A stretch of DNA of 64,000 nucleotides from Spirochaetaceae bacterium (GTDB lineage: Bacteria > Spirochaetota > Spirochaetia > Treponematales > Treponemataceae). The stretch's first letter is position 1. Each line of letters starts with the position of its first letter. This document shows, piece after piece, positions 4,527 through 48,494 of this stretch. The stretch covers positions 166,374 through 230,373 of the forward strand of contig JAFZVC010000025.1 in the NCBI GenBank assembly GCA_017618015.1, in the 5' to 3' direction. The notes under the pieces were generated by a model, which searched no databases, was not told where the DNA came from, and saw nothing but the letters and a program-made list of their open reading frames with translations. Position numbers and translations under genes: made by a program.

Positions 4527-4531
4527 GTTTT

Positions 4532-4619
4532 AGCACACAAGGATGTGCGCGAAAAGTGGACGAGTTTCGCGTATGCGAAACTCGCGTAGTAAGCACAGCA
4601 TGGACGCTGTGCTTACGTC
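4532..4619 (+). repeat. three-hairpin GC-rich module, copy 1
   Basis: H1 is GCACA/TGTGC, H2 is CGAGTTTCGC-gtat-GCGAAACTCG, and H3 is GTAAGCACAGC-atggac-GCTGTGCTTAC. It lies between the convergent MATE and lysA stops. A homologous copy is at 47107-47190. Confidence 0.7.
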
Positions 4620-5897
4620 TTACATTAATGCGAGAATGTCGTCGAGAGTTTCGCGGCGGCGGATAACCTGCACGCTTCCGTCTTTACGGATAAGCACTTC
4701 CGCAGGACGTGGACGGCTGTTGTACGGGCTGCACATACTGTATCCGTATGCGCCTGTGTCGAGTACGCACGCCAAGTCTCCGCGCTGAATAGCCGGAAGC
4801 ATCCTTGCCTTTGCAAGAATATCCCCAGACTCGCAGATGTTTCCTGTTACGGTCTGTTCCGTTAAGCCCGCAGCCCGATTGCACGGTACGCCGCCGCGCA
4901 GAACTTCAATGTCGTGCCAGCTGTCGTACATTGAAGGGCGAACGAGCACGTTCATACCAATATCCGTACCGCAGTACGTTACGCCTGAGTTTTGTTTGAC
5001 GGCGTGGAATCGTCCCAGAATTACGCTGCCTTCCGCAACGCAGAAGCGGCCTGGCTCGCTCTTGAAAAGCGGTGCGCTTCCGTATTTCGCCACGAAATCG
5101 TCAAGTATCGGTTCAAGACGCTGCTTGAAGCTTTCCATTGGGAAAGGCTTCTCGTCATCGAGCTTGTGATACGGAATGCCGTAGCCGCCGCCAAAGTCGA
5201 TGAACTCAAGGTTCTTAAACTGCTCCGCAATGCGAAGAAGGTTCGTAACCGCATCAAGATACGGCTGCGGATCCATGAAAAGTGAGCCGATATGCTGGTT
5301 TATGCCGGCGATGCGAAGGTTATATTTGTCGGCAAGCTTGAAAATCTCTGGAATATCGGCTTCCTGAATGCCGAATTTCGTCTTTTTTCCAGCTGTGACA
5401 ACTTTGTCGCAGTGACCGGCACCTACGCCTGGGTTGATGCGGACTGCGCACCTTTCTGAACCGGCGGCGGCTTTTCCCGCGTCACTCAAGCTGCGGTGAG
5501 TCTCGCCGTAAAGCTCAAGCTGAGCAAGACTGTCCAAGCTCGTCATAATTCCCTGCTCAATCGCGAACGCAAGCTCTGTTTCAGCGACGTTGTTCGGAAC
5601 AAAGAAAATGCGCTCCTTTGGGAAGCCTGCTTTCAAAAGAAGCGTGACTTCTCCGGGGCTCATCGCGTCGCAGTTAAGCCCTTCTTCAAGCGCAAGCTTA
5701 AGAATATGTATGTTCGTATTCGCCTTTACAGAGTAGTTGGCGGTGTAGGGGTATTTCGTAATGACTTGGGAAACTTCGTGCATCCGCTCGCGCAAAATGC
5801 GTTCGTTGTAGACGTACAAAGGGGTTCCGTAAGTTTCGGCGAGCTTTTCCGGCTCGTTCCCTTCAAAAAAGTTAGAATGTGTTATGTATGATTCCAT
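4620..5897 (-). CDS. lysA: diaminopimelate decarboxylase
   Basis: Orn/DAP/Arg decarboxylase family 2 pattern: YSVKANTN (PLP lysine), DFGGGYGIPY, EPGR, CESGD. The ORF is 425 aa. Confidence 0.9.
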   Translation of the reverse strand: MESYITHSNFFEGNEPEKLAETYGTPLYVYNERILRERMHEVSQVITKYPYTANYSVKANTNIHILKLALEEGLNCDAMSPGEVTLLLKAGFPKERIFFVPNNVAETELAFAIEQGIMTSLDSLAQLELYGETHRSLSDAGKAAAGSERCAVRINPGVGAGHCDKVVTAGKKTKFGIQEADIPEIFKLADKYNLRIAGINQHIGSLFMDPQPYLDAVTNLLRIAEQFKNLEFIDFGGGYGIPYHKLDDEKPFPMESFKQRLEPILDDFVAKYGSAPLFKSEPGRFCVAEGSVILGRFHAVKQNSGVTYCGTDIGMNVLVRPSMYDSWHDIEVLRGGVPCNRAAGLTEQTVTGNICESGDILAKARMLPAIQRGDLACVLDTGAYGYSMCSPYNSRPRPAEVLIRKDGSVQVIRRRETLDDILALM

Positions 5898-5906
5898 GTT
5901 TAATCC

Positions 5907-6896
5907 TTATAACAAATGTGCCCGGATCTCTTCGCCGCTGAGCGGACTCAAGTACGCCGGTGGTACATCGAACACCGTCTTGCAGCCTGTCTGTCCCTCG
6001 TTTTTCATGCGGAAAACCGCGCGCGCGTATGCAATCAGAACGCTCGATGTGAATGCCGGGTTCGAGTCGAGCTTAAGACTGTACTCGATGACGTTGTTGT
6101 ACTCTTTGTTCCAGCCTGTCTTTCCTGTGCGGAAAACAAAACCACCGTGAGGAATCTCCGAATGGTTCTTCTTCAGTTCTTCCTCGCTGATAAAATGAAC
6201 TGTCGTGTCGTAATCGGCAAAATAGTTCGGCATTTCTTTGATTTCTTTCTCGATTCTTGCTTTGTCGGCATCGGTCGCTCCGTCCTCGGCTACAACGAAG
6301 CATTCGCGTGTGTGCTTCTGGCGTGTCGTAAGCTCCGGATTCTTGCCCGCGCGTACTGCATCGAGCGCTTCCTGAACCGGAATCGTGTACTGTTTGCCAT
6401 CCTTAACGCCCTTGATGCGGCGGATAGCATCGCTGTGGCCCTGGCTAACGCCTTTTCCCCAGAACGTGTAGTCGTTTCCTTCGGGCAGGATGCAGTTAGC
6501 ATAGAGCCTGTTCAGGCTGAACATTCCGGGATCCCATCCGCAGCTGATGAGCGCCGTGTTGCCGGCTGATTTTGCCGCCGCGTCTACATTTGCGAAATGC
6601 TCCGGAATCTTTGCGTGCGTGTCGAAGCTGTCGATTACGTTGAAATATTTTGCGTAAACTGGTGTCTGTTTTGGAAGGTCGGTCGCGCTGCCACCGCAGA
6701 TGATAAGAACGTCAACTTCGCTTTTGTGTTTTTCGATGTCGTTGACGCTGTAGACGGGAACTCCCGCCGTAAGAATCTTCACGGATGCAGGGTCGCGCCG
6801 CGTAAAAACTGCCGTAAGCTCGCAGTCGGGGTTCTGTTTGATGGCGCACTCAACGCCACGTCCAAGGTTGCCGTATCCTAAAATACCGATTTTCAT
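5907..6896 (-). CDS. ddh: meso-diaminopimelate D-dehydrogenase
   Basis: It has the MKIGILGYGNLGRG Rossmann start, CGWDPGMFS and WGKGVSQGHSDA motifs characteristic of Ddh. It lies directly upstream of lysA. Confidence 0.85.
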   Translation of the reverse strand: MKIGILGYGNLGRGVECAIKQNPDCELTAVFTRRDPASVKILTAGVPVYSVNDIEKHKSEVDVLIICGGSATDLPKQTPVYAKYFNVIDSFDTHAKIPEHFANVDAAAKSAGNTALISCGWDPGMFSLNRLYANCILPEGNDYTFWGKGVSQGHSDAIRRIKGVKDGKQYTIPVQEALDAVRAGKNPELTTRQKHTRECFVVAEDGATDADKARIEKEIKEMPNYFADYDTTVHFISEEELKKNHSEIPHGGFVFRTGKTGWNKEYNNVIEYSLKLDSNPAFTSSVLIAYARAVFRMKNEGQTGCKTVFDVPPAYLSPLSGEEIRAHLL

Positions 6897-31301: not shown

Positions 31302-31402
31302 AGAAAAACACTAAAACATAATGATACGGTTGTCAACAATGGAGCAGGCGATTGAGCTGATTACGCTTTGTAGACGGGATTTCGGTGGAAATGATATAAA
31401 AC

Positions 31403-31723
31403 CTAGTCAAACTCCCGCAAAACTTCATTCACATAATCCCGTATATCGCTTGCAATCGCAGATTTTAGTCGTGTCGCGGTTTCCTTGTTTTTTCTGAATG
31501 ATTCTCCAATCGGCATAAAAAGTTTCACAACATCGATTTCCAAAGCCTCTGTAATTTGAGAAAGAGTTTTTTCTTCTGGATAAGAATGTGCTAATTCAAT
31601 GCTTTTTATAGTAGCTTCAGACAGATTTGACTTTTCTGCCAATTGAAATTGAGTATATTTTTTTTGTTTGCGAAGTGTGCGGATGTTTTCTGCAACACGC
31701 ATCCGTATCTCAAAATCTTGCAT
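31403..31723 (-). CDS. XRE-family helix-turn-helix transcriptional regulator
   Basis: ENIRTLRKQKKYTQFQLAEKSNLSEATIKSIE is a classical Cro/C1-type HTH. Confidence 0.75.
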   Translation of the reverse strand: MQDFEIRMRVAENIRTLRKQKKYTQFQLAEKSNLSEATIKSIELAHSYPEEKTLSQITEALEIDVVKLFMPIGESFRKNKETATRLKSAIASDIRDYVNEVLREFD

Positions 31724-31874
31724 TATATTATTTTCAATGAAATTATATTAAGATTACATAGATGAGAAATATACAAAGCTTAAAAAAGTATATATAATCT
31801 ATACAAAAATAAATATCTGTTTTATACTATTTCTTGAAAAGTTTATTTCTAGTAAATAATTTTGGAGGACTTGT

Positions 31875-32780
31875 ATGAAAAGATTTTTAACTGTTGGATT
31901 GATAGTATGCTTACTGTCTGTTTTTACTTCGTGCTTATCGACAGGAGGCGCATCATCTTCTGCTGATTCAGTAGATGTGTCTGGACTTTCTTTGGGAGAT
32001 AGAAAACTGATTTCTGGTGTTTACAACTTTGCGACAGAGAAATCAGATTCTTGGACTATATATGATCCATACTTTGTGTCGATTGATGTTACGAATGAGA
32101 AATACGTGTTTACTGCAAGTTTCGTTGTAGGAAATATAGTAGGTTTGACGAGATATGATTTCACATGTACGGTAACAAAACAAGGTGATGATTTTAAGAT
32201 TGATTTGACGGATATGTCATCATATGCTTGTGATAGAGATTTGAAAAAAGTAAAAGCAGGATCTTCATATAAAGCTTCGGAAAAAGTTGCTGCTGAATAT
32301 GCAAAACAAATGAAAGCAGAAATTCTGCTAAGAATTACAAACTGGTCAGATGATGAGTATACACAGAATCTTAATAAAGCAGTAACATCACCTATTATAT
32401 TGAATTGTATAGCGAACAATTCTGCATTAGTTTTCAAGAAGTTTATTAGTGATTATGAAATTATAGGTAGAACAATAAGCTTGCAAATGAATATAACGTC
32501 TGTTGATGAAGATAACAAGCATGAAGAATTTTCCTATTATGTTACAGGAAAAACTTTGAGAGGATACAAAATAGATGATCTTGGTATAAAGTTTCCGCAG
32601 TATTCAAGTGTATTTGTTTATACAAACAATGATAATGTTATATCATTGACACCGGCTGAGACTCTTGATGGAATAATGGCAGGTGGTACATCTGGTTCTG
32701 TGTATGAAGTAAATGGCACAATTAAGGACGTAAGAAGAAGTGATACAGGTGGTGTATCTGTTATTGAAATATATGAATAA
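31875..32780 (+). CDS. lipoprotein, function unknown
   Basis: Signal peptide with lipobox-like VFTSC. GGAGG RBS. AT-rich gene. Confidence 0.55.
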   Translation: MKRFLTVGLIVCLLSVFTSCLSTGGASSSADSVDVSGLSLGDRKLISGVYNFATEKSDSWTIYDPYFVSIDVTNEKYVFTASFVVGNIVGLTRYDFTCTVTKQGDDFKIDLTDMSSYACDRDLKKVKAGSSYKASEKVAAEYAKQMKAEILLRITNWSDDEYTQNLNKAVTSPIILNCIANNSALVFKKFISDYEIIGRTISLQMNITSVDEDNKHEEFSYYVTGKTLRGYKIDDLGIKFPQYSSVFVYTNNDNVISLTPAETLDGIMAGGTSGSVYEVNGTIKDVRRSDTGGVSVIEIYE

Positions 32781-32820
32781 GTATTTTCAGTAAGGAATTT
32801 ACATCGTATATAATTACAAA

Positions 32821-32874
32821 AATGTCCAGTCTCTGATAGTGTTTTTAATTCTGTTAGCGATTGGACATTTTTTT
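32821..32874 (+). terminator. intrinsic terminator after lipoprotein gene
   Basis: 11-bp stem AATGTCCAGTC/GATTGGACATT (one G-U pair) followed by a T7 run. The loop is large. Confidence 0.5.
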
Positions 32875-32888
32875 GTTTGCGAAGGAAT

Positions 32889-33164
32889 CTAGCAGTAAAA
32901 AGATATTCCTTCGAAATGCTTTTGCCATTCAGAACAGATGTAAGGAGCCCTGATTTCTATTACAGACATAATATCATTAAGAATATGCATCGGGATTTTT
33001 GATTTATTATGGGCAACAATACAATGCATGGATTTTGTAATCCAAATCTTTGTTCCGTTCTTTTGAGGTTTGCCTTGTGCAACATGAACGTGAACAGGTT
33101 CTTTTGGTTCGCCTTCATCTGACCAAAAATAAATTACATAACCACCGATACTAAAAATTTGCGG
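32889..33164 (-). CDS. DUF4160-like small protein
   Basis: MPQIFSIGGYVIYFWSDEGEPKEPVHVHV resembles the DUF4160 N-terminus (MPxI..F.G..I..Y..eH.PPHfH). Confidence 0.5.
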   Translation of the reverse strand, partial: PQIFSIGGYVIYFWSDEGEPKEPVHVHVAQGKPQKNGTKIWITKSMHCIVAHNKSKIPMHILNDIMSVIEIRAPYICSEWQKHFEGISFYC

Positions 33165-33426
33165 CATTACCAAAACCACCTTGTCTGGCGAATTTATAGA
33201 TAACGTGAACACCTTTTTCTATGATGTCTTGGAATTCTTTTATTTCATTATCGGAGAAGCCGTTGTTTTGCCAACTGTAGTTTGGTAAAATGCATGTCGC
33301 ATTAATAAAGCCACCGTCTACTGGGCGTTCGATGTATACCTTAATCTTTTCGCAGTTATTCTCTTCGTAGATACTTGAATGGGTAATCTCGGTTTCGTCA
33401 GGCATAGTCATAAAAGGGTATTTCAT
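33151..33426 (-). CDS. hypothetical small protein (upstream partner of DUF4160-like gene)
   Basis: GGAGG lies 8 nt upstream of ATG 33426 (MKYPFMT...). It overlaps the next gene by 14 nt. Confidence 0.45.
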   Translation of the reverse strand: MKYPFMTMPDETEITHSSIYEENNCEKIKVYIERPVDGGFINATCILPNYSWQNNGFSDNEIKEFQDIIEKGVHVIYKFARQGGFGNAANF

Positions 33427-33546
33427 CTTTGTCGCCTCCGAGTCTGAATTATAACACATTTCGGACATCTTGCAATATTATCTATAACAGCTTGCTTTTG
33501 CATGGATATGCCCTATACTGGAAGTATCATTTTTCAAGGAGTTCTT

Positions 33547-34365
33547 ATGGATAAAAAGCGGATTGTTTTGCTTAGTTCTTTGTTTGTTGCGATTTCTTTA
33601 TTATTCACAAGCTGTGTGACTTCTGGTAAAAATGGAATTGTATCTGAAAAAGAAGGTGTATCAATCAAGACCGGATATTATATAAATGAATGTCTTTTAG
33701 AGCTTGGAGCCGGGGAGGGAAATGGAAAATCGTTTGAGCCTTCTGCAACAGCTCCGTCTGCTGAATTCGAAACAAAGTTGCTTTCTGAAGATTATTCCAA
33801 GACAGAAATAGTCGCGTGGTGCGATGGAAACACGATTTGGTACTATGCGGCAGGATATACGGACATAGAAGACAATAAGATACCGCTTTATTTTGATAGC
33901 AGCGCCATGTTTCTTGGATGTTCAAAACTAATCAAAATTGATTTAAGTAAATTTGATACAAGTGATGTCGGTATAATGGAGAATATGTTCAGCTGTTGTT
34001 CGTCTCTTAAAGAGATTGTTGGTTTGAACATGTTTAACACTAGTAATGTAGTAACCACGCAATTAATGTTTTTCGGGTGTGAATCGCTGGAAACACTTGA
34101 TTTGAGTAGTTTCGATTTAAACGCGGTTAAAGACTTGGATGGAATGTTCTTTGGTTGTGTCGAACTTTCGACTATTTACGTGGCAAAAAATACTGATTGG
34201 AATTTGTTAGATGCCGCAGCAAAACCTTCAAGTACTTTATTTTCATGGTGTTTTTCTTTGGGGGGCGGCGAAGGTACATATTATGATGACAGCCATACCG
34301 ATGTAGCCTACGCGCATGTTGACGGTGGCGAAAGTAACCCCGGTTATTTCACCGTGAAGCCGTGA
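33547..34365 (+). CDS. BspA-family leucine-rich-repeat surface lipoprotein (DUF285-type repeats)
   Basis: Lipobox LLFTSC. Repeats F.GC..L..IDLS.FDTS.V..M..MF..C..L are typical of BspA/DUF285. AAGGAG RBS before ATG 33547. Confidence 0.7.
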   Translation: MDKKRIVLLSSLFVAISLLFTSCVTSGKNGIVSEKEGVSIKTGYYINECLLELGAGEGNGKSFEPSATAPSAEFETKLLSEDYSKTEIVAWCDGNTIWYYAAGYTDIEDNKIPLYFDSSAMFLGCSKLIKIDLSKFDTSDVGIMENMFSCCSSLKEIVGLNMFNTSNVVTTQLMFFGCESLETLDLSSFDLNAVKDLDGMFFGCVELSTIYVAKNTDWNLLDAAAKPSSTLFSWCFSLGGGEGTYYDDSHTDVAYAHVDGGESNPGYFTVKP

Positions 34366-34398
34366 GAGGAAGCGGTTCTTTGTAAAGTCTGGGGCGTT

Positions 34399-34523
34399 GC
34401 GGGGTTGAAACTGAATCAGCTTACCCCGCAGGAAGGGGGAGCCGAAAACGGAGCACGCTTGCGTGCGAACGGTTGAGGCGCGGGGGAAGACCCAGTGAGC
34501 GCGTAGCGCGAACTTCCCCCGCC
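34399..34523 (+). repeat. modular GC-rich intergenic repeat, copy B
   Basis: Hairpin GCGGGG...CCCCGC, AGGAAGGGGGAGCCGAAAACGGAGCACGCTTGCGTGC, and CGGGGGAAG...CTTCCCCCG ending in CCTATC, as in copy A. Confidence 0.55.
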
Positions 34524-39948: not shown

Positions 39949-40215
39949 TTAGCCGATTACAGCAAGAATATCAGCAGCCTTAAGGATAAGGTGCTCTTCT
40001 CCGTCAATCTTAACGGCTGTACCAGCATATTTGTCGTACATAACGCGGTCGCCGGCTTTTACCTTGATTTTCTCTTTATCGTCTCCGACAGCGACAACAG
40101 TCGCAATCTGTGTTTTTTCCTGTGCTGTGTCCGGAATGATGATTCCGCTTGCAGTCTTTGACTCTGCTTTCTCGATCTTAACGAGAACTCTGTCCGCCAA
40201 TGGTGTAACCTTCAT
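39949..40215 (-). CDS. groES: co-chaperonin GroES
   Basis: [13 protein letters not shown]...[11 protein letters not shown]...G.V.AVG...D.V.Y.KY.GT..K.DGEE.LIL. No groEL is adjacent. Confidence 0.95.
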
Positions 40216-40249: not shown

Positions 40250-40298
40250 TGTTCATTGTGAACACATTAAAGTTACGAAAAAAAAGCTCCATCGTCAA
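40250..40298 (-). promoter_or_regulatory. putative groES promoter with palindrome TGTTCA-N3-TGAACA at the predicted start site
   Basis: The minus strand reads TTGACG (40298-40293)-17 nt-TAACTT (40275-40270). The palindrome at 40250-40264 lies just downstream. No CIRCE (TTAGCACTC-N9-GAGTGCTAA) is present. Confidence 0.3.
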
Positions 40299-40507
40299 TA
40301 AAAATCGTCGTTGATGCTAACTCCTAACAGGAATTTGGCGGTTCCCGCCCGCACGATGTCGCGGGCGGTCGCTATGTTCCGGGTTCGCTTCCGCTCATTC
40401 CCACGCGGATAAACCGCATGGGAACAGCTTCGCTGCCCTTCACAGCGCTAACCGAGTTCATTTCGAAAAATTGTTTAAAAAAATTTTAGACTATACGTCG
40501 CTTCGCG

Positions 40508-40575
40508 CCGTTAGCGAGAGGAAATTTATTAAAATTCTGCGCTCACGCGCAGGACGCTATCATTCGGTGATAGTC
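40508..40575 (+). repeat. left copy of imperfect direct repeat bracketing the island
   Basis: CCGTTAGCGAGAGGAAATTTATTAAAATTCTGCGCTCACGCGCAGGACGCTATC... aligns without gaps to 46561-46628 with roughly 80 percent identity over the first ~55 nt (hand alignment). Confidence 0.7.
40557..40573. promoter_or_regulatory. candidate operator palindrome CTATCA-N5-TGATAG upstream of FliG-like/AAA+ genes
   Basis: Perfect 6-bp arms (CTATCAttcggTGATAG) 42 nt upstream of ATG 40615. The same half-sites and spacing occur at 42992-43008. Confidence 0.5.
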
Positions 40576-40614
40576 TGGTGCTTTACATTAATAGTGACAT
40601 TGAAGGAGTTGTGT

Positions 40615-41322
40615 ATGAGAAAAGAAAACACTGTTGAGACAAAGAAAGCGCAGGAATTGGTTTCAAAAACAATGGCTACTATCACCGAAGAAACCAAGAA
40701 TATCCTTATTGATTATATCCAGAACGGATATATTGAAAGCCTTTCAAAGGCAATTGCGTATCTCGGAATGAGCCCGGATGAAGCAAATATTCTTCTTGGA
40801 GATATGAGCGAAACTGTGAAAGAACGAATAACAAGCAATATCGCGCACTTTCAAAAACACGACGAAAGTGTCGTTTCTGAAGTTGAACATATTGTTCTGA
40901 CTCGTGGCAAAAAGCATGTTGCAGAAGAATACAAGGTAATCAAAGAGAACCTGCCATTTGCTGGAAAAGAGTTTGCTGAAAAATCCATACAGAATTTCCG
41001 AGCTAAAACACCCATTTTCCAGAAAACACTGGATGAATGTATTTTCACTTTTGAAGACATTAATCAGCTTGATGACCGTGAAATCCAAAAGATACTTTAT
41101 TGGACAGGACATAAGACACTGACTCTGGCTCTAAAAGGAGCTTCCAAAGAGCTTCGGAAAAGAATTTTCCGCAACAAACCCAAAAAAGAGGTGGCTATGC
41201 TCAAAGAAGCCATAGAGTTTTTGGGATCAGTTCGTGATTCGTGGATAGAAGAAGCTCAGGCAAAAATCGTAAAAAACGCTCTGCGTCTTGAAGCTGACGG
41301 TGAAATTGTTATTTGGAGATAA
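40615..41322 (+). CDS. FliG-like protein (middle + C-terminal domains only)
   Basis: The C-terminal half FEDINQLDDREIQKILYWTGHKTLTLALKGASKELRKRIFRN...EEAQAKIVKNALRLEADGEIVI follows the FliG_C signature (LDDR.IQ, LALKGAS.EL, EEAQ.KI, GEIVI). GAAGGAG RBS lies 6 nt before ATG 40615. At 235 aa it is about 100 aa shorter than canonical FliG. Confidence 0.65.
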   Translation: MRKENTVETKKAQELVSKTMATITEETKNILIDYIQNGYIESLSKAIAYLGMSPDEANILLGDMSETVKERITSNIAHFQKHDESVVSEVEHIVLTRGKKHVAEEYKVIKENLPFAGKEFAEKSIQNFRAKTPIFQKTLDECIFTFEDINQLDDREIQKILYWTGHKTLTLALKGASKELRKRIFRNKPKKEVAMLKEAIEFLGSVRDSWIEEAQAKIVKNALRLEADGEIVIWR

Positions 41323-41323
41323 T

Positions 41324-42982
41324 ATGGAAATCGGGATGAAAGAACCTAGAAAAATCAGATGGAATGTGCTGGCTGCAATTGATTATGTTTGCAAACAGAC
41401 AAAGTACAAAAAGCTAAAATACGAGAAAACTCCCCAAATGCAAAAAACACTGGAACGGCTTTGCTCTTATTTTGGCGGAATCAATGAGAATCAGGTTATT
41501 ATCCTCAGCGCAGTTCTTGACCTCCAGCTTTCGCATGACAAAATGACTAATATCAGCGATTTTTTCAATATGACCGCGCTCAGTTATCTTCAGCATAATA
41601 ATGAAATTGAGGATTTGGACGAGCGCGGTTTGTTGGATGTCGGGATAAACGAAGAAGGACATTCATACGATATCCCACAAATCGTAGTTACTGCAATTTT
41701 ACGTAACAGTGAAATAATCATTGAAAAGAAGGAGTTTGATCCAGTTGATTTCGTGAAAGAAGTGACTATGATCTTGGATAATAACTTGTACAATCAATTT
41801 AAAAAAAATAAAGAAAAAGTATATAAACTTGAAACGAAGAATTCAAAACAACCTTTTATAAAACATGTAAAAGCCCTTGTTCCGATACCATCCGATAGAA
41901 GTTGCTTTTATGCGATTTGCAGTGATTTTGTAGATGGTTTTGATACAAATTTGCAGCATGGTTTTCGTAGGGTATATGATAACAATGCAACTTCTAAAAT
42001 AAGAGCGATGCTCTCGGAGAGCCATGTGCTCTTAAAACATGGTCTTGTCGATTTTATCATAAAAGGCAATGTTATTGATTCAACTTTGACCCTGACGGAC
42101 AAAGCTAAAAAAATCTTTCTGGGTGAAAATGAATACCTCTATGAGCGGAAACTGAATGAGAAATCGCTTATCCTGCCGTCATCTATCGTTTCAAAGCATT
42201 TGTTCTACAGCCCGGAAAATCAAAAGCAGATTGATACGCTTTATTCCACTATAGAAAGTAAGAACCTTCTTTCTATACAAAACAGTCTGCGTTCTAAGGG
42301 GTTGTCGACAGGAATATGTATTCTTCTTTATGGAGCACCTGGTACTGGCAAGACAGAATCCGTGTATCAGATTGCAAAGGCAACGAACAGGCAAATCATT
42401 CATGTCGATATAAGTACGACAAAATCGTGTTGGTTTGGAGAAAGCGAAAAACTTATAGAACGTATATTTGTAGACTACAAGCGGTCATGTAAAAAACTTC
42501 TGGCGCACGGAAAAAGTGATATTCCTATTCTTCTTTTCAACGAGGCAGATGCAATCCTGCAAAAGCGCATGGAGTTTCATGGTGGTGGTGTTGAGAAAAC
42601 AGAGAATGCAATGCAGAACATCCTGCTTGAGAACATGGAAAAGTTTGAAGGCATTCTTATAGCGACGACAAACCTTGCCATAAATCTTGATGCAGCGTTT
42701 GAACGGCGGTTTCTGTTTAAAATAAAGTTCGACAATCCATCTGTGGAGGCAAAAACCGCGATTTGGAGATCGAAGCTTGAATGGCTGCCCGAAAATCAGG
42801 CTCAATTATTGGCGAACGAGTATAATTTTTCCGGTGGGGAGATTGATAATGTCGTCAGAAAGGCAACTATGGAAGAAATCCTTACGGGTTCAAGAGTTAC
42901 AATTAATCGGCTTGAAGAAATCTGCAATACGGAAAAACTGAATAATTCCGATTCCGGCAATAAAGTCGGGTTTCATGTATAA
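41324..42982 (+). CDS. classical-clade AAA+ ATPase with uncharacterised ~320-aa N-terminal region
   Basis: Walker A LYGAPGTGKTE, Walker B ILLFNEADA, sensor-1 IATTN, and SRH/Arg-finger region LDAAFERRF. The ATG lies 1 nt after the FliG-like stop. Confidence 0.8.
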   Translation: MEIGMKEPRKIRWNVLAAIDYVCKQTKYKKLKYEKTPQMQKTLERLCSYFGGINENQVIILSAVLDLQLSHDKMTNISDFFNMTALSYLQHNNEIEDLDERGLLDVGINEEGHSYDIPQIVVTAILRNSEIIIEKKEFDPVDFVKEVTMILDNNLYNQFKKNKEKVYKLETKNSKQPFIKHVKALVPIPSDRSCFYAICSDFVDGFDTNLQHGFRRVYDNNATSKIRAMLSESHVLLKHGLVDFIIKGNVIDSTLTLTDKAKKIFLGENEYLYERKLNEKSLILPSSIVSKHLFYSPENQKQIDTLYSTIESKNLLSIQNSLRSKGLSTGICILLYGAPGTGKTESVYQIAKATNRQIIHVDISTTKSCWFGESEKLIERIFVDYKRSCKKLLAHGKSDIPILLFNEADAILQKRMEFHGGGVEKTENAMQNILLENMEKFEGILIATTNLAINLDAAFERRFLFKIKFDNPSVEAKTAIWRSKLEWLPENQAQLLANEYNFSGGEIDNVVRKATMEEILTGSRVTINRLEEICNTEKLNNSDSGNKVGFHV

Positions 42983-42988
42983 AAAAAT

Positions 42989-43011
42989 AGCCTATCATTC
43001 CTTGATAGGCT
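42989..43011. promoter_or_regulatory. candidate operator / hairpin AGCCTATCA-N5-TGATAGGCT upstream of WYL regulator gene
   Basis: Perfect 9-bp arms. The element lies between the AAA+ stop (42982) and a TATAAT box (43017-43022) that precedes the WYL gene. No T-tract follows, so it is not a typical terminator. Confidence 0.5.
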
Positions 43012-43044
43012 GGGTGTATAATATTGATAATATGAGGAGGCTTT

Positions 43045-44046
43045 ATGGCGAAAGAAAGAGTGAAAAAACAGTTTTTGAACGGATATGAGCGTATCTTGAA
43101 AATCGATTATATGATTTCGAACTGGAATTATCCGAGCGTTGAGGATTTTGTAAACGAAACTGGAGCTTCCATTCCGACTATAAACCGCGACCTGCGGGAT
43201 TTGCGCCTGAAATTTGGTGCCGATGAGATATTGCAGTATGACAGGAACAAAAAGGGTTTTTATTACACGCTCCCGTCGTTCCGCATCCCGGCACTGCTCA
43301 CTTCCGAAAAGCAGATAATTGCCGCTCAGCTTATGTCAAATCTTTTGAATCTGATAAAAGACACTCCGGTTTACAAACAGGCAGTAGAGGTGTTTACTTC
43401 GCTTTCTAACGAGATTGATGAGGACACCAAGCTCAACGCTAAAAAGCTTTCTAACCGCATACTGTTTTTGGGAATGGAACCAGTTAAGATTGATGATGAG
43501 ATATGGACAAAGCTGGAGGAAGCCCTCGCGAATAATTATTATGTGAGCTTTAATTATAAAGGTCACAAGGAGAAGTTCAAAGTTCAACCATGGCAGCTTG
43601 TATACAGTCAAGGGATGTGGAGCTTGTATGCGTATAATCAGAATCCTGAAATAAAGAAAACACGCTTCTATAATCTTCCCGGAATGTACAATCTTGAGAT
43701 TGATAAGCAGAACACCTTTGAGTTGCCTGATGATTTTGAGTATACAAAACGCGCAAAAGGAAATTTCCGTCGGTACATTGGCAAAGAAACCTTGCAGTAC
43801 AAGATAAAGATTACTTCCGATAAAACGTTGGACTTCATAAAAACATACAACTGGGCTGAAGATCAGAAGTTCGAAAAACAGGATGATGGCAGTACGATAA
43901 TGACTTTCACGAGCAATCAGGACTGGCCGATTTTCGGCTGGGTTATGAGCCACGGAATGTACGCTCAACCGCTGGAACCTGAGTGGCTAGTGAACGAGTG
44001 GAAGAAAAACGTGAAAGAAATGGCGAAATTGGCGGAGAGGGTGTAG
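43045..44046 (+). CDS. WYL-domain transcriptional regulator (BrxR/CapW-like architecture)
   Basis: N-terminal wHTH (VEDFVNETGASIPTINRDLRDLRLKFG), YDRNKKGFYY, and WYL barrel (VSFNYKGHKEKFKVQPWQLVYSQGMWSLYAYN). GAGGAGG RBS. Confidence 0.8.
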   Translation: MAKERVKKQFLNGYERILKIDYMISNWNYPSVEDFVNETGASIPTINRDLRDLRLKFGADEILQYDRNKKGFYYTLPSFRIPALLTSEKQIIAAQLMSNLLNLIKDTPVYKQAVEVFTSLSNEIDEDTKLNAKKLSNRILFLGMEPVKIDDEIWTKLEEALANNYYVSFNYKGHKEKFKVQPWQLVYSQGMWSLYAYNQNPEIKKTRFYNLPGMYNLEIDKQNTFELPDDFEYTKRAKGNFRRYIGKETLQYKIKITSDKTLDFIKTYNWAEDQKFEKQDDGSTIMTFTSNQDWPIFGWVMSHGMYAQPLEPEWLVNEWKKNVKEMAKLAERV

Positions 44047-44075
44047 AAAAGCTAGGTTGATAAGGAGATTACGTT

Positions 44076-44756
44076 ATGCAATATACCAAAATTGAAAAGA
44101 TAATTAGAGATTCATTGTTAGATGTGAGAGACTTGTATACGAATAAACCAATAACATCGCATGTGATTTTTCCAAAATATTCTGACAACACAGAAAGATA
44201 TTCAGAGCAGGAACTAAAAAGCATCTTTTTGAGCAAGATTGAACAATCTGCATTTTATTATTCTGTCGAAACTCCATCCAGGAACAAATATCGGTTTGTT
44301 GAAAATGACGAGCCAAAAGTTTCATTCTGTGGAGAAGAATCAAAAGAGGTGTTTCAATCTTCTATGATAGATACGACTTTATATGATTCAAATAAAACTT
44401 TATTGAGCCATATAGAATTCAAATATGGACAAAGTTCCGTTTTTTCAATTCAAAAGGATTTTTTAAAGCTGATATGTGAATCACAAAATGTCAAGTACAA
44501 TTATTTTGCTCATTATCTTGGCAATTCAGACAATGGAACAAAAAAAGCGATTTTCAGTAAATATCGACAAGCATTGAATAATATTATGACTATCAATACA
44601 AACATTGATGATTTTGAGAGGAAGATTTCAAAGATCATCATTTTCGTGATGTTTGCAAGGTTGAATGAGATATATAGATTCTCTTTGAAAGATTTTGCTG
44701 AGAATCTCAACCTTGATGCTTATTTGGAAACAATCAGTCAGCCAACAGAACGGTAA
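44076..44756 (+). CDS. hypothetical protein with PD-(D/E)xK-like motif spacing
   Basis: AAGGAG RBS. D99-x14-E114-F-K116 (SSMIDTTLY...LSHIEFKYG) is preceded by an acidic helix (SEQELKS). Nuclease fold is inferred only. Confidence 0.45.
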   Translation: MQYTKIEKIIRDSLLDVRDLYTNKPITSHVIFPKYSDNTERYSEQELKSIFLSKIEQSAFYYSVETPSRNKYRFVENDEPKVSFCGEESKEVFQSSMIDTTLYDSNKTLLSHIEFKYGQSSVFSIQKDFLKLICESQNVKYNYFAHYLGNSDNGTKKAIFSKYRQALNNIMTINTNIDDFERKISKIIIFVMFARLNEIYRFSLKDFAENLNLDAYLETISQPTER

Positions 44757-44801
44757 AGAAGGAAAGCTAATCTGGCGAGTTTGATGAAGAGGGTGTAGAA
44801 T

Positions 44802-45419
44802 ATGAATAAGGAGATGAAAATGGAAGCGGCAAAGAATCAAGAATTAGATAAAAATCTTAATGATGAGGTTTTTGGTTACAATGGTAAAAAATATACTCTT
44901 TATGAATTACGATGTAGTGCAAATAATTATTTAACATCAGATCCTAAAGAATGCAGGCAAAAACTTAAGGAAAAATATGCAAAAGTTTATAATTGCATAG
45001 AACAAGAAGTTCCTCCTTCTATTCTGAAAGAAGTTTATAGTCTTGATTCAAATTTCAAAGAAATATGTGAACCAGTTTCTGGTTATACGAAGAATGATTA
45101 TTATGCCAGTAACTTAGGGAGAATTCGTCATTTTGGTAAGATTATGCTTCAGGATGATACGAATCTTAATGGATATCTTTATTTAAAAGATTATGCTGAA
45201 GGTAGCAACAAGCTATATAAATTTAAGTCAACAACTCCTGTATATACATTTATAGCCTGTGCTTTTTTTAAAGATTTCAATAACGGTACCGAGTTAAAGC
45301 ATATACATCATATTAATAATAATGGTTATGACTCTCGACCTGATAATTTAATTCCACTAACTCAGAAAGAACATTCAATTGCACATGGTCGAGTTATAAA
45401 AAATAGTAAGGAGGCGTAA
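44802..45419 (+). CDS. NUMOD4-HNH endonuclease
   Basis: YYASNLGRIRHFGK...NGYLY is NUMOD4-like. HIHHINNNGYDSRPDNLIPLTQKEHSIAH is the HNH_3 motif. The start could be ATG 44820, which has AAGGAG 6 nt upstream. Confidence 0.75.
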   Translation: MNKEMKMEAAKNQELDKNLNDEVFGYNGKKYTLYELRCSANNYLTSDPKECRQKLKEKYAKVYNCIEQEVPPSILKEVYSLDSNFKEICEPVSGYTKNDYYASNLGRIRHFGKIMLQDDTNLNGYLYLKDYAEGSNKLYKFKSTTPVYTFIACAFFKDFNNGTELKHIHHINNNGYDSRPDNLIPLTQKEHSIAHGRVIKNSKEA

Positions 45420-45420
45420 A

Positions 45421-46431
45421 ATGTTCGAATCAATTGGAAACAAAGATTTAAGACAGGTTTATAATGAACTTTGGGAAAATGAAGCAAATCGCCCTGCAGA
45501 GGTAATACCAACAAATCACTCGGAAGATTCTTTTCAATTTAAGATTAACAAAAAAAATGATATGTGTAATGAAATTGAAAGAATATTTGATCTTAATATA
45601 AAAGATTTTTCGAAAAAGTTTAAAGATGCCTGTTATTCACAGGGACAAGAATATAAGGAGATTTCTAAATTACATTCATCTGCTCTTTGTTCTTTACTTA
45701 TTTTTTCTGGGGTTTCCAACAATAATGAACTACGATTGACTCTCAATGGACAAGAATGTATTTTTTCTTCTGTTTTATTTGAGTATAAGAATAAGGTAAT
45801 AGGTTTTCCTTCGAATGTTGATGTTGTTTTAGTAGGGAAAAATAAGGATAAAACAAAGACAATAATTCTATTTCTAGAATCAAAATTTTCTGAATACCTA
45901 AGAGTTTCAAATATATTTGATGAACTTGGAAAAAGGTATATTACGAATGAGTATTCAAAAGAAATCTACACAGATGATTTTTTAAGAAATATAGGTATTC
46001 AATTGTGTAAAGATGAGAATTCCAAATTAAAAATCTTTTCAAAAAAAAGAAAAGGAAAAATGCGTGATTTCTATGGTTTCAAACCAATAGACGAAAACGA
46101 TGAAACTTATCTTGAGGGAATTAAACAAATGATTTCTCACTATATTGGTGTTGAACATTTTATTGAAGAAGATTTGGAAGATGATCGAAAAATAACTTAT
46201 TGTGCTAAAGACACAGAAGTCTATCTTGGAGAGATTCTTTTTGATTTCAAATTTAAGGACGCCAAAGAAAAGTTACGTAAATATTCTTCATATTACAAAA
46301 AACTAGCGAATAGGTTGAAAAAATTAAATCCAAACATTCATGTATTGGATGATATCTTAAAATATTCTTTATTTAAAGATTTAGATTTTGAAATAGCTGA
46401 TAAGGTAAAAAAATTTTACGGATTAGATTAA
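45421..46431 (+). CDS. hypothetical protein with PD-(D/E)xK-like motif spacing
   Basis: AGGAGG RBS, and the ATG lies 1 nt after the HNH stop. D134-x18-E153-S-K155 (PSNVDVVLVGK...ILFLESKFSE). Nuclease fold is inferred only. Confidence 0.45.
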   Translation: MFESIGNKDLRQVYNELWENEANRPAEVIPTNHSEDSFQFKINKKNDMCNEIERIFDLNIKDFSKKFKDACYSQGQEYKEISKLHSSALCSLLIFSGVSNNNELRLTLNGQECIFSSVLFEYKNKVIGFPSNVDVVLVGKNKDKTKTIILFLESKFSEYLRVSNIFDELGKRYITNEYSKEIYTDDFLRNIGIQLCKDENSKLKIFSKKRKGKMRDFYGFKPIDENDETYLEGIKQMISHYIGVEHFIEEDLEDDRKITYCAKDTEVYLGEILFDFKFKDAKEKLRKYSSYYKKLANRLKKLNPNIHVLDDILKYSLFKDLDFEIADKVKKFYGLD

Positions 46432-46465
46432 CAATAGAAATAAACATTTCTATCCCTGGTATTCG

Positions 46466-46504
46466 TCTCCGTTTATACTAGAAGTATGAGCGGAGATTTT
46501 TTTT
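46466..46504 (+). terminator. intrinsic terminator closing the WYL-nuclease operon
   Basis: 13-bp stem TCTCCGTTTATAC / GTATGAGCGGAGA (one G-U pair), 5-nt loop, then T8. Confidence 0.8.
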
Positions 46505-46560
46505 ACATAAAGCTCCGTAGCCTAATCACAAAGAAAACCGTTCTATGCATCACTTATGCT

Positions 46561-46628
46561 CCGCTAACGAGAGGAAATTTACTTAAATTCTGCACTCAGG
46601 CGCAGGACACTATCTCTCTATGATAATC
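46561..46628 (+). repeat. right copy of imperfect direct repeat bracketing the island
   Basis: CCGCTAACGAGAGGAAATTTACTTAAATTCTGCACTCAGGCGCAGGACACTATC... is the partner of 40508-40575. Confidence 0.7.
46610..46626. promoter_or_regulatory. degenerate third copy of the palindrome (CTATCT-N5-TGATAA)
   Basis: It occupies the same position within the right direct repeat as the left-copy palindrome. Both arms carry one change. Confidence 0.3.
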
Positions 46629-46656
46629 CTCCTGTTTATACTGTATAAACAGGAGG
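46628..46656 (+). promoter_or_regulatory. perfect 14-bp-arm palindrome that contains the RBS of ORF 46661
   Basis: CCTCCTGTTTATAC-T-GTATAAACAGGAGG. The right arm ends in AGGAGG 4 nt before ATG 46661. It is either an SD-sequestering hairpin or a dimer operator. Confidence 0.5.
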
Positions 46657-46660
46657 ATGT

Positions 46661-47029
46661 ATGGCAAATAGATTAGATATGGGTGAATACGCACTAGTAG
46701 AAAGATTCTACGTAGTTGAACCAATTGAAAGGCTTCGTAAAGTCGAACGAATCCAGAGTTTGTCTTTGGTAGAACGTTCTCATTTAATGCGGTTAGTGCA
46801 ATATTTGGAGCGAGATCGTGCCGAAATAATGGCAAAAAATCCGAATCCAAAGCATCTACCGTTTCCAAATGAAAAAAGCGTACAGCCACAAGAAGAAAAT
46901 CCAGCGTATATCCTTGATATCGGTAATCATAATAATGATGACATTTCTGGCGTAATTGTGGATATTGGTAATCATAATAATTATGACAAATCTGGTGTAA
47001 TCGTGGATATTGCCTGTCTAAGAAAATAA
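46661..47029 (+). CDS. hypothetical protein with internal 15-aa tandem repeat
   Basis: AGGAGG RBS 4 nt before the ATG. The C-terminus repeats DIGNHNN(D/Y)D(I/K)SGVIV. No family recognised, and coding status is uncertain. Confidence 0.35.
   Translation: MANRLDMGEYALVERFYVVEPIERLRKVERIQSLSLVERSHLMRLVQYLERDRAEIMAKNPNPKHLPFPNEKSVQPQEENPAYILDIGNHNNDDISGVIVDIGNHNNYDKSGVIVDIACLRK
46916..47011 (+). repeat. 45-bp tandem repeat, 2.1 copies, inside ORF 46661
   Basis: GATATCGGTAATCATAATAATGATGACATTTCTGGCGTAATTGTG versus GATATTGGTAATCATAATAATTATGACAAATCTGGTGTAATCGTG (39/45 identical by hand count), then GATATT. Confidence 0.8.
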
Positions 47030-47106
47030 CTCACTTTTTTAAGTTTCATACAAACGTGTTTAAGACAGCGGAGTTTACCGCTGGGCTAGGGCGTGGAGCA
47101 GTTGCG

Positions 47107-47190
47107 GACGTACATTAAGCGTCCATGCTTAATGTACTTAGCGGGTTTTGTAACAAAACCCGACAGTTTTTGCGCACATCCATGTGCGCA
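47107..47190 (-). repeat. three-hairpin GC-rich module, copy 2 (inverted)
   Basis: The reverse complement reads TGCGCACATggATGTGCGCA, CGGGTTTTG-tta-CAAAACCCG and GTACATTAAGC-atggac-GCTTAATGTAC. Order, linkers and H3 loop match copy 1. An extra outer stem GCGGACGTA/TACGTCCGC sits at 47104-47112 and 47202-47210. Confidence 0.7.
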
Positions 47191-47214
47191 GTTGAATGTC
47201 CTACGTCCGCAAGT

Positions 47215-47330
47215 CGGAACGACCGCGCGTTAGCGTATTTCGCAACAAGCACGGAGTGCGCCGTTTCCAGCTAGCTGCGGAAGGCCCGGCACGCCGTAGG
47301 CGGGCAGCCCCCATAATCATAATTAAATAA
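47215..47330 (-). repeat. modular GC-rich intergenic repeat, copy adjoining the three-hairpin module
   Basis: The reverse complement contains GCTAGCTGGAAACGGCGCACTCCGTGC. On the plus strand the block ends in GCAGCCCCCATAATCATAATT, reminiscent of CCCCCGCCTATCATATT in copy B. Confidence 0.45.
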
Positions 47331-47600: not shown

Positions 47601-47616
47601 TGGCACGGTAATTGCA
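47601..47616 (+). promoter_or_regulatory. sigma-54 (RpoN) -24/-12 promoter for the RpoS-like sigma gene
   Basis: TGGCACGgtaaTTGCA matches the TGGCACG-N4-TTGCW consensus at every conserved position. It lies 39 nt upstream of ATG 47655, and GGAGG RBS sits at 47644-47648. Confidence 0.65.
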
Positions 47617-47654: not shown

Positions 47655-48494
47655 ATGGCTAATGATGATGTAATTCTTGCAATGTACCTTAAAGAGATCA
47701 ACAGAATCCCTCTCCTTTCACGTGATGAGGAAACCGATCTTGCAGCCCGCGCGAAAGCTGGTGACAAGATTGCAAAAGACAAGATTGTACGTGCGAATCT
47801 CCGCTTCGTTGTCAATGTAGCAAAAAAATATCAGAACCGTGGGCTTGATCTTACCGACCTTATCAGCGAGGGAAATATCGGGCTTCTTACTGCCATCGAC
47901 CGTTACGATGTGTCAAAAGGATACCATTTCATTTCTTATGCCGTATGGTGGATCCGCCAGGCAATTCTTAAGGCTATCTACGAGAAGTCAAGGATGATCA
48001 GGCTTCCGCTTAACCGCGCGAACGAGCTTGTTCAGATTGAGAAAGCTCGCAAATCTGTCGGTGGAAGCAAGACAGAAGAGCAGGAAATCCGCGAGATTGC
48101 AGAGATGCTCAACATGGACAAGACTCATGTCCGCGACCTTCTTAATATCGCAAGGGATATGATTTCGCTTGATAGCGCAGTGAATCCTGGCGATTCAGAC
48201 AGTTCATCGCTCGGAGAGTTCATTTCTGACTCACTTTACGATGATCCTGAAGAGCACGTTATGCAGACGAGCATGAGGGAAGATATAGACGCAGTTCTCG
48301 ACAGCCTTACGGAAAAAGAGGCTGAGGTTCTGCGCTGCCGCTTCGGACTCAACGGAAAAGAGTCGATGTCGCTTAAGGAAGTTGGCGATGTGTTCCATCT
48401 TACGAAAGAGAGAATCCGCCAGATCGAGAAGAAGGCTATCCGGCGCCTGCAGCATCCTACACGCATGAACAAGCTGGAAGCTTACGTAGCGTAA
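47655..48494 (+). CDS. sigma-70 family sigma factor, group-2 (RpoS-like), regions 1.2-4
   Basis: Region 2 DLISEGNIGLLTAIDRYDVSKGYHFISYAVWWIRQAI and region 4.2 SLKEVGDVFHLTKERIRQIEKKAIRRLQHP are RpoD/RpoS-type rather than FliA-type. It is only 279 aa. Confidence 0.85.
   Translation: MANDDVILAMYLKEINRIPLLSRDEETDLAARAKAGDKIAKDKIVRANLRFVVNVAKKYQNRGLDLTDLISEGNIGLLTAIDRYDVSKGYHFISYAVWWIRQAILKAIYEKSRMIRLPLNRANELVQIEKARKSVGGSKTEEQEIREIAEMLNMDKTHVRDLLNIARDMISLDSAVNPGDSDSSSLGEFISDSLYDDPEEHVMQTSMREDIDAVLDSLTEKEAEVLRCRFGLNGKESMSLKEVGDVFHLTKERIRQIEKKAIRRLQHPTRMNKLEAYVA

Follow-up and report, generated by a model that had tools for sequence, protein, structure and literature searches.

Here, we propose that seven genes lying between groES and an RpoD-like sigma-factor gene of a Spirochaetaceae bacterium form a regulon of nuclease-type genes and a FliG-like/AAA ATPase pair under repression by a WYL regulator, and that they serve as an accessory anti-phage-type module at a recombination hotspot, a reading that we hold with slightly better than even confidence. 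The genes (G1 to G7) lie in a 64,000-nucleotide (nt) stretch of a metagenome-assembled genome (assembly GCA_017618015.1, contig JAFZVC010000025.1, positions 166,374 to 230,373), hereafter called the window, in whose numbering positions are given. This is based on one palindrome standing at three promoters, on the block being a strain-variable insertion, on the gene set recurring elsewhere in related genomes, and on the domains of the encoded proteins. The module is probably a so far undescribed variant of the WYL-controlled nuclease defence module, unusual in its flagellar-paralogue/AAA component.

Layout of the island

The seven genes occupy the groES-sigma interval on a single strand. Their GenBank entries are MBO4704715 to MBO4704721 (J5647_03145 to J5647_03175), whose annotation goes no further than hypothetical, ATP-binding or WYL protein. 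The locus is found in metagenomes from the ruminant gut. A first-pass annotation, made from the letters of the window, had pointed to a sharp drop in composition here. The drop is real (G+C of 0.356 over 40470-47030, against 0.457 for the window and 0.469 once the island is excluded) and takes two steps: from flanks of about 0.47 to 0.395 over G1-G3 (40615-44046) and 0.292 over G4-G6 (44076-46431), the 2-kb windows with the lowest G+C of the entire 64 kb beginning at 44251-44751. The features of the island are as follows.

40505..40575, + strand: 71-nt repeat copy 1, promoter/operator region of G1-G2
40557..40573, no strand: O1, operator-like palindrome CTATCATTCGGTGATAG, 41 nt ahead of the G1 start
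40615..41322, + strand: G1, FliG middle plus C-terminal paralogue, 235 amino acids (aa; Pfam FliG_C, PDB 1lkv)
41324..42982, + strand: G2, classical AAA ATPase, 552 aa (Pfam AAA), starting 1 nt past the G1 stop
42989..43011, no strand: O2, operator-like perfect 23-base-pair (bp) palindrome AGCCTATCA-TTCCT-TGATAGGCT, ending 33 nt ahead of the G3 start
43045..44046, + strand: G3, YafY/BrxR-type regulator with WYL and WCX domains and a predicted helix-turn-helix (HTH), 333 aa (Pfam WYL, WCX)
44076..44756, + strand: G4, PD-(D/E)xK-like protein of an uncurated family, 226 aa (invariant motif residues, AlphaFold2 (AF2) model)
44802..45419, + strand: G5, NUMOD4 plus HNH nuclease-type protein, 205 aa (NUMOD4, HNH_3, PHROG 59)
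45421..46431, + strand: G6, divergent REase-ARP-like PD-(D/E)xK protein, 336 aa, starting 1 nt past the G5 stop
46465..46504, + strand: intrinsic terminator of the G3-G6 unit
46558..46628, + strand: 71-nt repeat copy 2, promoter/operator region of G7, including O3
46610-46626: O3, palindrome CTATCTCTCTATGATAA with one mismatch, 34 nt ahead of the G7 start
46628..46656, + strand: perfect 13-bp hairpin, CCTCCTGTTTATA-CTG-TATAAACAGGAGG, enclosing the AGGAGG ribosome-binding site of G7
46661..47029, + strand: G7, familyless, 122 aa, with two 15-aa tandem repeats (DNA 46916-47005)

The strong terminator that had been noticed earlier is a 15-bp stem (46465-46497) followed by a T-run. The start of the FliG-like gene, first placed at 40471, is put by the gene calls at 40615.

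One palindrome ahead of three proposed transcription units

The exact palindrome CTATCA-N5-TGATAG occurs twice in the 64 kb, against none expected in shuffled sequence, and a third copy has one mismatch; the cores lie 41, 36 and 34 nt 5' of the starts of G1, G3 and G7, respectively. The 23-bp palindrome O2 overlaps promoter-like hexamers and stands between promoter and start of G3, as the putative operator of the regulator's own gene, O1 and O3 being the further sites. We read the island as a single predicted regulon of three transcription units, G1-G2, G3-G4-G5-G6 and G7. Given that the palindrome is shared, and given the precedent of BrxR-family WYL repressors, whose binding sites are inverted repeats with a 5-bp spacer that lie ahead of defence operons and at more than one place per defence island (PMC9122601), G3 is most naturally read as a putative repressor of G1-G2, of its own operon G3-G6 and of G7 that would act by binding to this palindrome. 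A predicted operator this short and exact makes the regulatory claim directly testable.

The direct repeats that the first-pass annotation had described as about 65 nt long are genuine (40505-40575 and 46558-46628; 71 nt, 82% identity, just two copies in the window, 0 expected by chance), and they do not mark the edges of the island. They are homologous, duplicated promoter/operator DNA ahead of G1 and G7. That they might be att sites or mark where the island ends was rejected: copy 1 is internal to the island, the unit of about 59 nt at its 5' side is present zero to two times depending on the strain (0 in L007 and L105, 1 in the window, 2 in L005; the labels L001 to L123 denote comparison contigs and loci), and both repeat copies end in the operator. 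When sister-strain DNA is aligned, CTATCA-N5-TGATAG always follows this unit upstream of G1.

The palindrome is also kept where the genes themselves are found elsewhere. O1 is retained 5' of G1 homologues in L019, L020, L021 and L105, and O2 5' of G3 homologues in L019, L020, L021, L033, L061 and L115, where it is ahead of the WYL gene; in L033, L024 and L031 the palindrome lies directly 5' of G2 and G3 homologues. L061 carries the identical palindrome sequence ahead of both its WYL operon and an FlhA-like/AAA operon, and at the unrelated locus L015 the palindrome precedes a WYL operon as well as the operon that contains a G6 homologue. Taken together, it stands 5' of G1, G2, G3, FlhA-like and REase homologues in L015, L019-L021, L024, L031, L033, L034, L061 and L115. 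Across 369 kb of Treponema G2 loci there are 18 exact copies, compared with a single one in the 570 kb of non-Treponema G2 loci and none in the 769 kb of control loci. In Bacteroidales loci no shared palindrome was found upstream of the AAA and WYL genes, and hence the operator is specific to the Treponema branch.

A 15.6-kb locus beside recG in Treponema sp. RGIG7850 (L034) has ten operator-like sites at no more than one mismatch. The genes that follow these sites are a G2 homologue, one resembling G7, an FlhA fragment and several without annotation, and the sites point to a larger regulon of the same type.

A strain-variable insertion

Empty sites in relatives, which the first-pass annotation had proposed to look for, were found in a metagenome search anchored on the sigma protein. 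In L119, L120 and L123, whose sigma proteins are 63-71% identical to that of the window, groES and the sigma gene are divergent neighbours 235-355 nt apart, with the full order TPR (tetratricopeptide repeat) protein, groES, sigma, recG in L123. As 7,440 nt separate these two genes in the window, the block of about 7.1 kb is an insertion.

Strains with a GroES identical to that of the window differ at this site. L001, L002, L009 and L011 are the same as the window, while L006 (DNA 90% identical) has G1-G3 and then a different gene past the WYL regulator, and L010 and L004 have an AT-rich membrane protein of 745 or more aa in place of the island. Homology between the window and L010 and L004 stops at about 40311; the left hairpin block is also found in the island-bearing sister strain L105. 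In L105/L106 (G2 96% identical), G1-G4 and G7 are kept and 44813-46578 is replaced by genes for a REase-ARP protein of 287 aa, a 311-aa protein, an FlhA C-terminal-like protein of 329 aa and a short AAA protein of 265 aa, after which homology picks up again at 46578. In view of these alternative and empty states, the block is neither universal nor syntenic in the lineage, and its universal presence had been named at the outset as grounds for giving up the idea. We read the interval between groES and the sigma gene as a recombination hotspot that holds an accessory island of about 7.1 kb, and homologous recombination via the conserved flanks would be the simplest account of the exchange of cargo. 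The island is not one acquisition: G1-G4 form a stable left module, beside which lies a swappable nuclease cassette (44813-46578).

The candidate explanation that G1-G3 are ancestral core genes at this place was rejected; empty sites exist, and L019 and L020 hold the module elsewhere. The membrane protein of L010 (3-2237) and L004 (2-358) belongs to no Pfam family and matches PADLOC PDC-M09A weakly (1.5e-4). A second strain-variable block of low G+C (about 0.33) lies at 31340-34517 of the window and is missing from L003 and L005; it holds DUF285, DUF4160, an HTH_3 regulator and unannotated genes, and L004 has PIN-toxin genes near there instead.

Recurrence of the gene set

A genome scan with the G2 family alignment gave 80 loci, 30 in Treponema and 50 in Bacteroidales or other bacteria. 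WYL genes are the commonest neighbours of G2 homologues (21/80 loci, in both Treponema and Bacteroidales), usually directly downstream or divergently upstream, and two plasmid-borne G2 copies likewise lie no more than a few kilobases from a WYL gene; 80 control loci yielded no G3 relative. Larger parts of the set recur as well. L020 has G1, G2, G3, HNH and REase-ARP (8.8e-29); L019 has G1, an FlhA N-fragment, G2, G3 and REase-ARP; L057 has G2, G3 and one protein that fuses NUMOD4-HNH to REase-ARP (1.4e-35); L061 has G3, a DUF6946-NUMOD4-HNH fusion, a DUF6946/REase protein, the operator, an FlhA N-fragment and G2; L115 has a WYL gene, a G4-like protein, REase-ARP and an FlhA fragment; and L099 has an AAA gene divergent from a WYL gene, a PD-(D/E)xK-like protein and REase-ARP. 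The architecture is thus repeated at unrelated chromosomal positions in at least five Treponema genomes, and with the common operator and this co-occurrence the earlier suggestion that the genes form a unit is upheld. The island is more coherent than a random defence-island mosaic.

The encoded proteins

Profile searches agree with what the first-pass annotation had read from the letters, namely a FliG-like protein with an AAA ATPase, a WYL regulator and a NUMOD4-HNH protein. G4, G6 and G7 match no Pfam family; in G4 and G6, the two proteins to which PD-(D/E)xK motif spacing had been ascribed, D...ExK is conserved.

G3 scores above the Pfam cut-offs for WYL (PF13280, 31.6 bits, cut-off 21.8) and for the C-terminal dimerisation domain WCX (PF25583, 28.1 bits, cut-off 23.9). 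Its predicted N-terminal winged HTH has no Pfam HTH match; the PADLOC WYL model PDLC01457 spans residues 14-258 (1e-22), and one member of the G3 cluster is called YafY by JGI.

G1 matches Pfam FliG_C (PF01706) at 102.4 bits (cut-off 23.3; 2e-29) and the middle and C-terminal domains of Thermotoga maritima FliG (PDB 1lkv) at 1.3e-24, over 206 residues (30-235). The C-terminal domain is well conserved and near that of true FliG, including an MFXF-like hinge (IFTFED) and most of the torque-helix region. G1 differs from FliG in that it lacks the N-terminal FliF-binding domain, scores under the equivalog cut-off of TIGR00207 (102.8 bits vs 226.7, with the match beginning at profile position 109), sits in a strain-variable island and is coupled translationally to an AAA ATPase. 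In addition, the EHPQR motif, by which the FliG middle domain binds FliM, is lost, and SEHPQT of T. maritima aligns with NGYIES of G1.

G2 consists of an unannotated N-terminal region of about 300 aa and an AAA domain of the Vps4/CdvC/p97-D2 type (Pfam AAA 4e-21; PDB profile matches to VAT, Afg2, CdvC and p97, best 1e-24). The Walker A sequence GAPGTGKT (GxPGTGKT), the WFG pore loop and the FERRF (RRF) arginine fingers are invariant in 22 G2 homologues. So is the family's Walker B, ILLFNEAD, across 22 diverse members, with N for the usual D, such that the canonical hhhhDE does not apply. In build, G2 resembles a substrate-threading unfoldase. Used as a search pattern, ILLFNEAD recovered 586 relatives.

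An exhaustive profile search gave 1,207 representative clusters for the G4 family, none of them with a Pfam family. The invariant residues of the family are E44/E46, D99, E114-x-K116 and D128, with D99 and E114-x-K116 invariant in alignments of 46 and of 40 sequences. The AF2 model is confident (predicted local distance difference test, pLDDT, 92.7), and its Foldseek matches are weak (E >= 4e-3, TM score <= 0.34); the nuclease entries among them are restriction-endonuclease-fold proteins, and the weak matches include Cdn1/Card1, YaeQ, SfsA, NucS and BamHI. Neither G4 nor G6 has a significant match to PDB sequences, by single sequence or profile, and hhalign finds the G4 and G6 families unrelated.

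G5 has NUMOD4 above the cut-off (27.3 bits vs 23.4) and HNH_3 below it (19.8 bits vs 24.8), matches PHROG HNH families at 5e-10 (PHROG 59, HNH endonuclease) to 5e-7, and carries the HNH motif sequence HHINNNG...DNL...KEH. The G6 family has at least 646 proteins, with E121, D134 and E153-x-K155 invariant. G6 itself has no Pfam match; some homologues match REase-ARP, PF22558 (P0081 at 1.1e-7), the hidden Markov model of the family hits the REase-ARP-type protein L115_271 at 4e-7, and hhalign places the motif columns of the G6 family and of a REase-ARP alignment in register (E 1e-4, probability 56%). The AF2 model of G6 (pLDDT 95.2) had no credible structural neighbour in the PDB or BFVD by Foldseek. 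Considering the HNH-REase fusion found elsewhere and the 1-nt gap between their genes, G5 and G6 are probably partners in a two-nuclease effector, and G5 would not be merely a selfish homing endonuclease.

G7 matches no known family. It is kept in L105 (127 aa, 3e-58), is not in the empty sites, and has a homologue in L034 that comes after the G2 homologue (1e-11). The stem of the hairpin around its ribosome-binding site is conserved in L105, where the loop is longer; this hairpin may be a translational control element or a second operator.

How the module might work

In light of G3 being a predicted repressor, how might the island act? A dimer of G3 would sit on CTATCA-N5-TGATAG at each of the three promoters and keep them silent. 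A ligand arising from infection or DNA damage would then bind the WYL domain and lift repression, much as single-stranded DNA releases DriD (PMC9186387) and, according to a 2026 preprint (PMC13622015), derepresses BrxR during infection. The cassette of G4 (PD-(D/E)xK), G5 (HNH) and G6 (REase-ARP-like) would be expressed and may cut invading DNA or, alternatively, the cell's own DNA in an abortive response. The putative AAA unfoldase G2 would be induced along with G1, which most plausibly is an adaptor or bait that directs or gates G2, a further possibility being that G1 is its substrate.

Several observations weigh against this proposal. The island has no self/non-self marker such as a methyltransferase, and the sparing of self-DNA is left unexplained. 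G2 homologues are mostly without G1 (present in 5/80 loci) and often without WYL, so that components of the island can work apart, and G6 homologues outside Treponema are often without G4 or G5. When G3 was compared with all PDB chains by phmmer, nothing was found at E <= 1, BrxR, CapW and PafBC included. G4 has only weak structural matches (best E 4e-3), and the link of G6 to REase-ARP is below the Pfam threshold and of moderate probability by hhalign. Finally, the novelty of the system is relative to the PADLOC-DB version used, v2.0.0 (2023).

Alternative explanations

One option, which we consider unlikely, is that the hotspot holds a stack of independent elements, with G1-G2, the WYL-nuclease cassette and G7 as unrelated neighbours gathered at a place that tolerates recombination and no single system present. 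The two-step composition (0.39 vs 0.29 G+C) and the swap in L105 being limited to 44813-46578 would fit such a stack, as would G2 homologues lacking G1 in 75/80 loci and an adjacent WYL gene in 59/80, and G6 homologues occurring alone in L012 and L017. Yet one palindrome heads all three units, and also G2- and G3-type genes in several Treponema species, and the full gene order appears again at unrelated positions (L019, L020). A narrower proposal, that G5 alone is a free-standing homing endonuclease, a selfish gene that has landed between G4 and G6 with no part in a host system, seems to us very unlikely. NUMOD4 with HNH_3 is typical of phage homing endonucleases, PHROG 59 matches G5 at 5e-10, the PADLOC 'HEase' model matches the L061 relative, and G5 is missing from the sister strain L105; however, L057 has NUMOD4-HNH fused to REase-ARP and L061 has it fused to DUF6946, in L020 it lies between the WYL regulator and REase-ARP, the G5 stop is 1 nt from the G6 start, and the island has no phage DNA similarity.

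We give as little credence to G1-G2 being a motility module that remodels or brakes the periplasmic flagellar motor, with the nuclease genes merely adjacent. Such a role would suit the closeness of the G1 FliG_C domain to true FliG, hinge and torque-helix region included, and the restriction of FlhA-fragment paralogues with a G2-type AAA gene to flagellated Treponema (10/30 loci, against 0/50 in Bacteroidales and others). It sits poorly with the absence of G1-G2 from strains of the same species (L010/L004) and from empty sites, with the WYL-type operator that G1-G2 has in common with the nuclease operon, with the FliM-binding motif not being conserved, and with the G2 family being widespread in non-flagellated Bacteroidales and on plasmids, beside WYL, GmrSD-like, SLOG, Sir2 and toxin-antitoxin genes. 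Least probable by far, to the point that we barely entertain it, is a prophage remnant or integrative mobile element. Low G+C, an HNH gene and the few G2 relatives on contigs classed as viral might suggest one, but Pfam, NCBIfam and PADLOC found no integrase, transposase, methyltransferase or helicase among the seven proteins, as the first-pass annotation had said, nor any PglZ, no tRNA was found, and a comparison of the left and right flanks for terminal, att-like repeats gave no similarity beyond chance. Neither the island DNA nor G6 had a match in 50,697 phage records, no G6 relative was found in 2.9 million viral contigs, any likeness to phage records or viral contigs is confined to generic AAA matches, and the PHROG matches of the island proteins are restricted to generic AAA and HNH families.

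A possible role for truncated machine paralogues

We also considered, as a doubtful idea, that WYL regulons in rumen Treponema and some other gut bacteria recruit truncated paralogues of essential cellular machinery as baits or dominant-negative effectors, that is, defence by decoys. Fragments would be paired with AAA unfoldases (FliG middle/C, FlhA N/C) or would flank nucleases (DnaE, DnaB_C); as baits they would report phage interference with the real machine, or as effectors they would be freed by the unfoldase. In the genome scan, FliG middle/C copies were found at 5 loci and FlhA N-terminal fragments at 6, with further FlhA fragments in L105 and L115, and none of the 50 non-spirochaete loci had FliG or FlhA fragments beside G2 genes. 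Related WYL/REase loci also hold DnaE (PHP, finger domain) and DnaB_C fragments. If true, this would be a previously undescribed defence logic of which the G1-G2 pair is one instance; we found no published account of a FliG/AAA/defence link or of a flagellar-fragment/AAA pairing.

Truncated paralogues of this kind, neighbouring WYL, REase or AAA genes, lie at L105 14610-16408, L115 7477-8175, L019 2447-3205, L108 5416-9273, and L015 7213-7977 and 10090-10587. The scores are 2.5e-18 for FlhA C-terminal, 6e-24 and 2e-12 for FlhA N-terminal, 2e-30 for a FliG_C protein of 441 aa, 2e-60 for DnaE PHP plus a partial polymerase domain, 1e-13 for the DnaE finger domain and 2e-11 for DnaB_C.

Comparison with known systems

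The PADLOC v2 scan of the island returned no system, only partial IetA-type AAA and generic WYL matches, in keeping with the earlier remark that nothing nameable is matched. The island belongs to no named system: it is not IetAS, Zorya, restriction-modification, BREX or DISARM. What had been called a candidate novel conflict system keeps its insertion, its variability and its lack of a PADLOC v2 match; a defensive role is a proposal, and a WYL regulator ahead of nucleases is an already known design, that of the BrxR family (Picton et al. 2022, PMC9122601), roughly half of whose regulators are found together with known defence systems.

The likeness to BrxR and CapW lies in G3 having a predicted HTH-WYL-WCX architecture and heading an operon of defence-type genes, in the palindromic operator with its 5-bp spacer and more than one copy, and in the mosaic nature of the downstream cargo. 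The differences are that the operator arms are 6-9 bp vs 11 bp, that G3 has no detectable similarity to the solved BrxR, CapW and PafBC structures, that its predicted regulon adds an AAA/FliG-like operon 5' of the regulator and a small-protein gene, and that the cargo is made up of uncharacterised PD-(D/E)xK and HNH proteins, not of BREX, restriction or CBASS genes. Restriction-modification, BREX and DISARM are further set apart by the lack of a methyltransferase, PglZ and helicase in the island.

IetAS reportedly combines the AAA ATPase IetA with the protease IetS. Among defence models, IetA is the closest to the AAA domain of G2 (PADLOC 1.4e-27; NCBIfam IteA 7e-26), but only that domain aligns and the score is below the cut-off (NF042959, 91.3 bits vs 510). 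No IetS subtilase-type protease domain is found in G1-G7, and G2 differs in its N-terminal region of about 300 aa and in its partners, which are FliG- or FlhA-like proteins and a WYL regulator. Zorya consists of a MotAB-like stator, ZorAB, with ZorC/D or the HNH protein ZorE. The island resembles it in bringing a flagellar-motor-derived part and an HNH protein into a defence-type locus, with a weak match between ZorE and G5 (E 0.003). In contrast, PADLOC finds no ZorA or ZorB match in the island, the flagellar part comes from rotor (FliG middle/C) or export-gate (FlhA) fragments, not the stator, and an AAA unfoldase-like protein and a WYL regulator stand where Zorya has ZorC/D.

REase-ARP (PF22558), PDDEXK_13 and DUF6946 are placed in the PDDEXK clan CL0236 (PMC10584680). 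The cargo nucleases of sister and related loci are clear members of these families (L057, L020), and G6 has the same order of motifs, SS, FE, D, ExK, E, Y..QM..H; it differs by scoring under the Pfam threshold, by having a family of its own and by a confident model for which no structural neighbour was found. The meaning of 'ARP' was not found in the literature, and we know of no tested function for REase-ARP, PDDEXK_13 or DUF6946.

If the WYL-regulon model is right, a multi-operon WYL regulon would join the repertoire of bacterial defence, in the spirochaetes, a phylum whose defence is barely studied. It would also give a first functional context to three uncurated families: G4 (about 1,200 representative clusters), G6 (at least 646 proteins), and the G2 AAA family, which has thousands of members in Treponema, Bacteroidales and plasmids that are annotated solely as 'ATP-binding protein'. 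The repeated pairing of an AAA unfoldase with a flagellar fragment may reflect a novel means by which immunity is sensed or executed.

The flanks

The island lies between two core genes, and a hairpin block is found near either end.

39949..40215, - strand: groES (Cpn10; Pfam Cpn10), core flanking gene and left boundary, outside the island
40312..40470, no strand: left GC-rich hairpin block, inside the variable region
47040..47330, no strand: right GC-rich hairpin block
47601-47616: sigma-54-type promoter TGGCACGGTAATTGCA, about 40 nt 5' of the RpoD-like sigma gene
47655..48494, + strand: RpoD-like sigma-factor gene, 279 aa, core flanking gene and right boundary

The dense hairpin block described earlier on the right (47040-47330) folds far beyond shuffled sequence (z = -4.25), with weak copies elsewhere in the window, and a similar block is present on the left (40300-40470, z = -3.9). 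Rfam, run over the whole window with gathering thresholds and over the island with E <= 1, gave only a chance match to a miRNA model.

An AT-rich element with ATCGTCAA(T/C)AAAAA lies 5' of groES at 40262-40311, at L010 2253-2300 and in the intergenic regions of L120 and L123. It does not appear to match the CIRCE consensus. The element is conserved in every strain and related species and probably belongs to the promoter or regulatory region of groES.

Between groES and the sigma gene, L119, L120 and L123 have the same sigma-54-type promoter motif, TGGCAC-N5-TTGC. This occurrence in the window and in these three relatives suggests that RpoN controls the RpoD-like sigma factor. RpoD-like genes are found near G2 homologues too: in the Bacteroidales loci L070, L077 and L096 (about 4100-6700), two tandem genes for 288-aa RpoD-like proteins lie 39-77 nt 5' of the G2-family gene, and a sigma gene is also near the G2 homologues of L022, L026 and L079.

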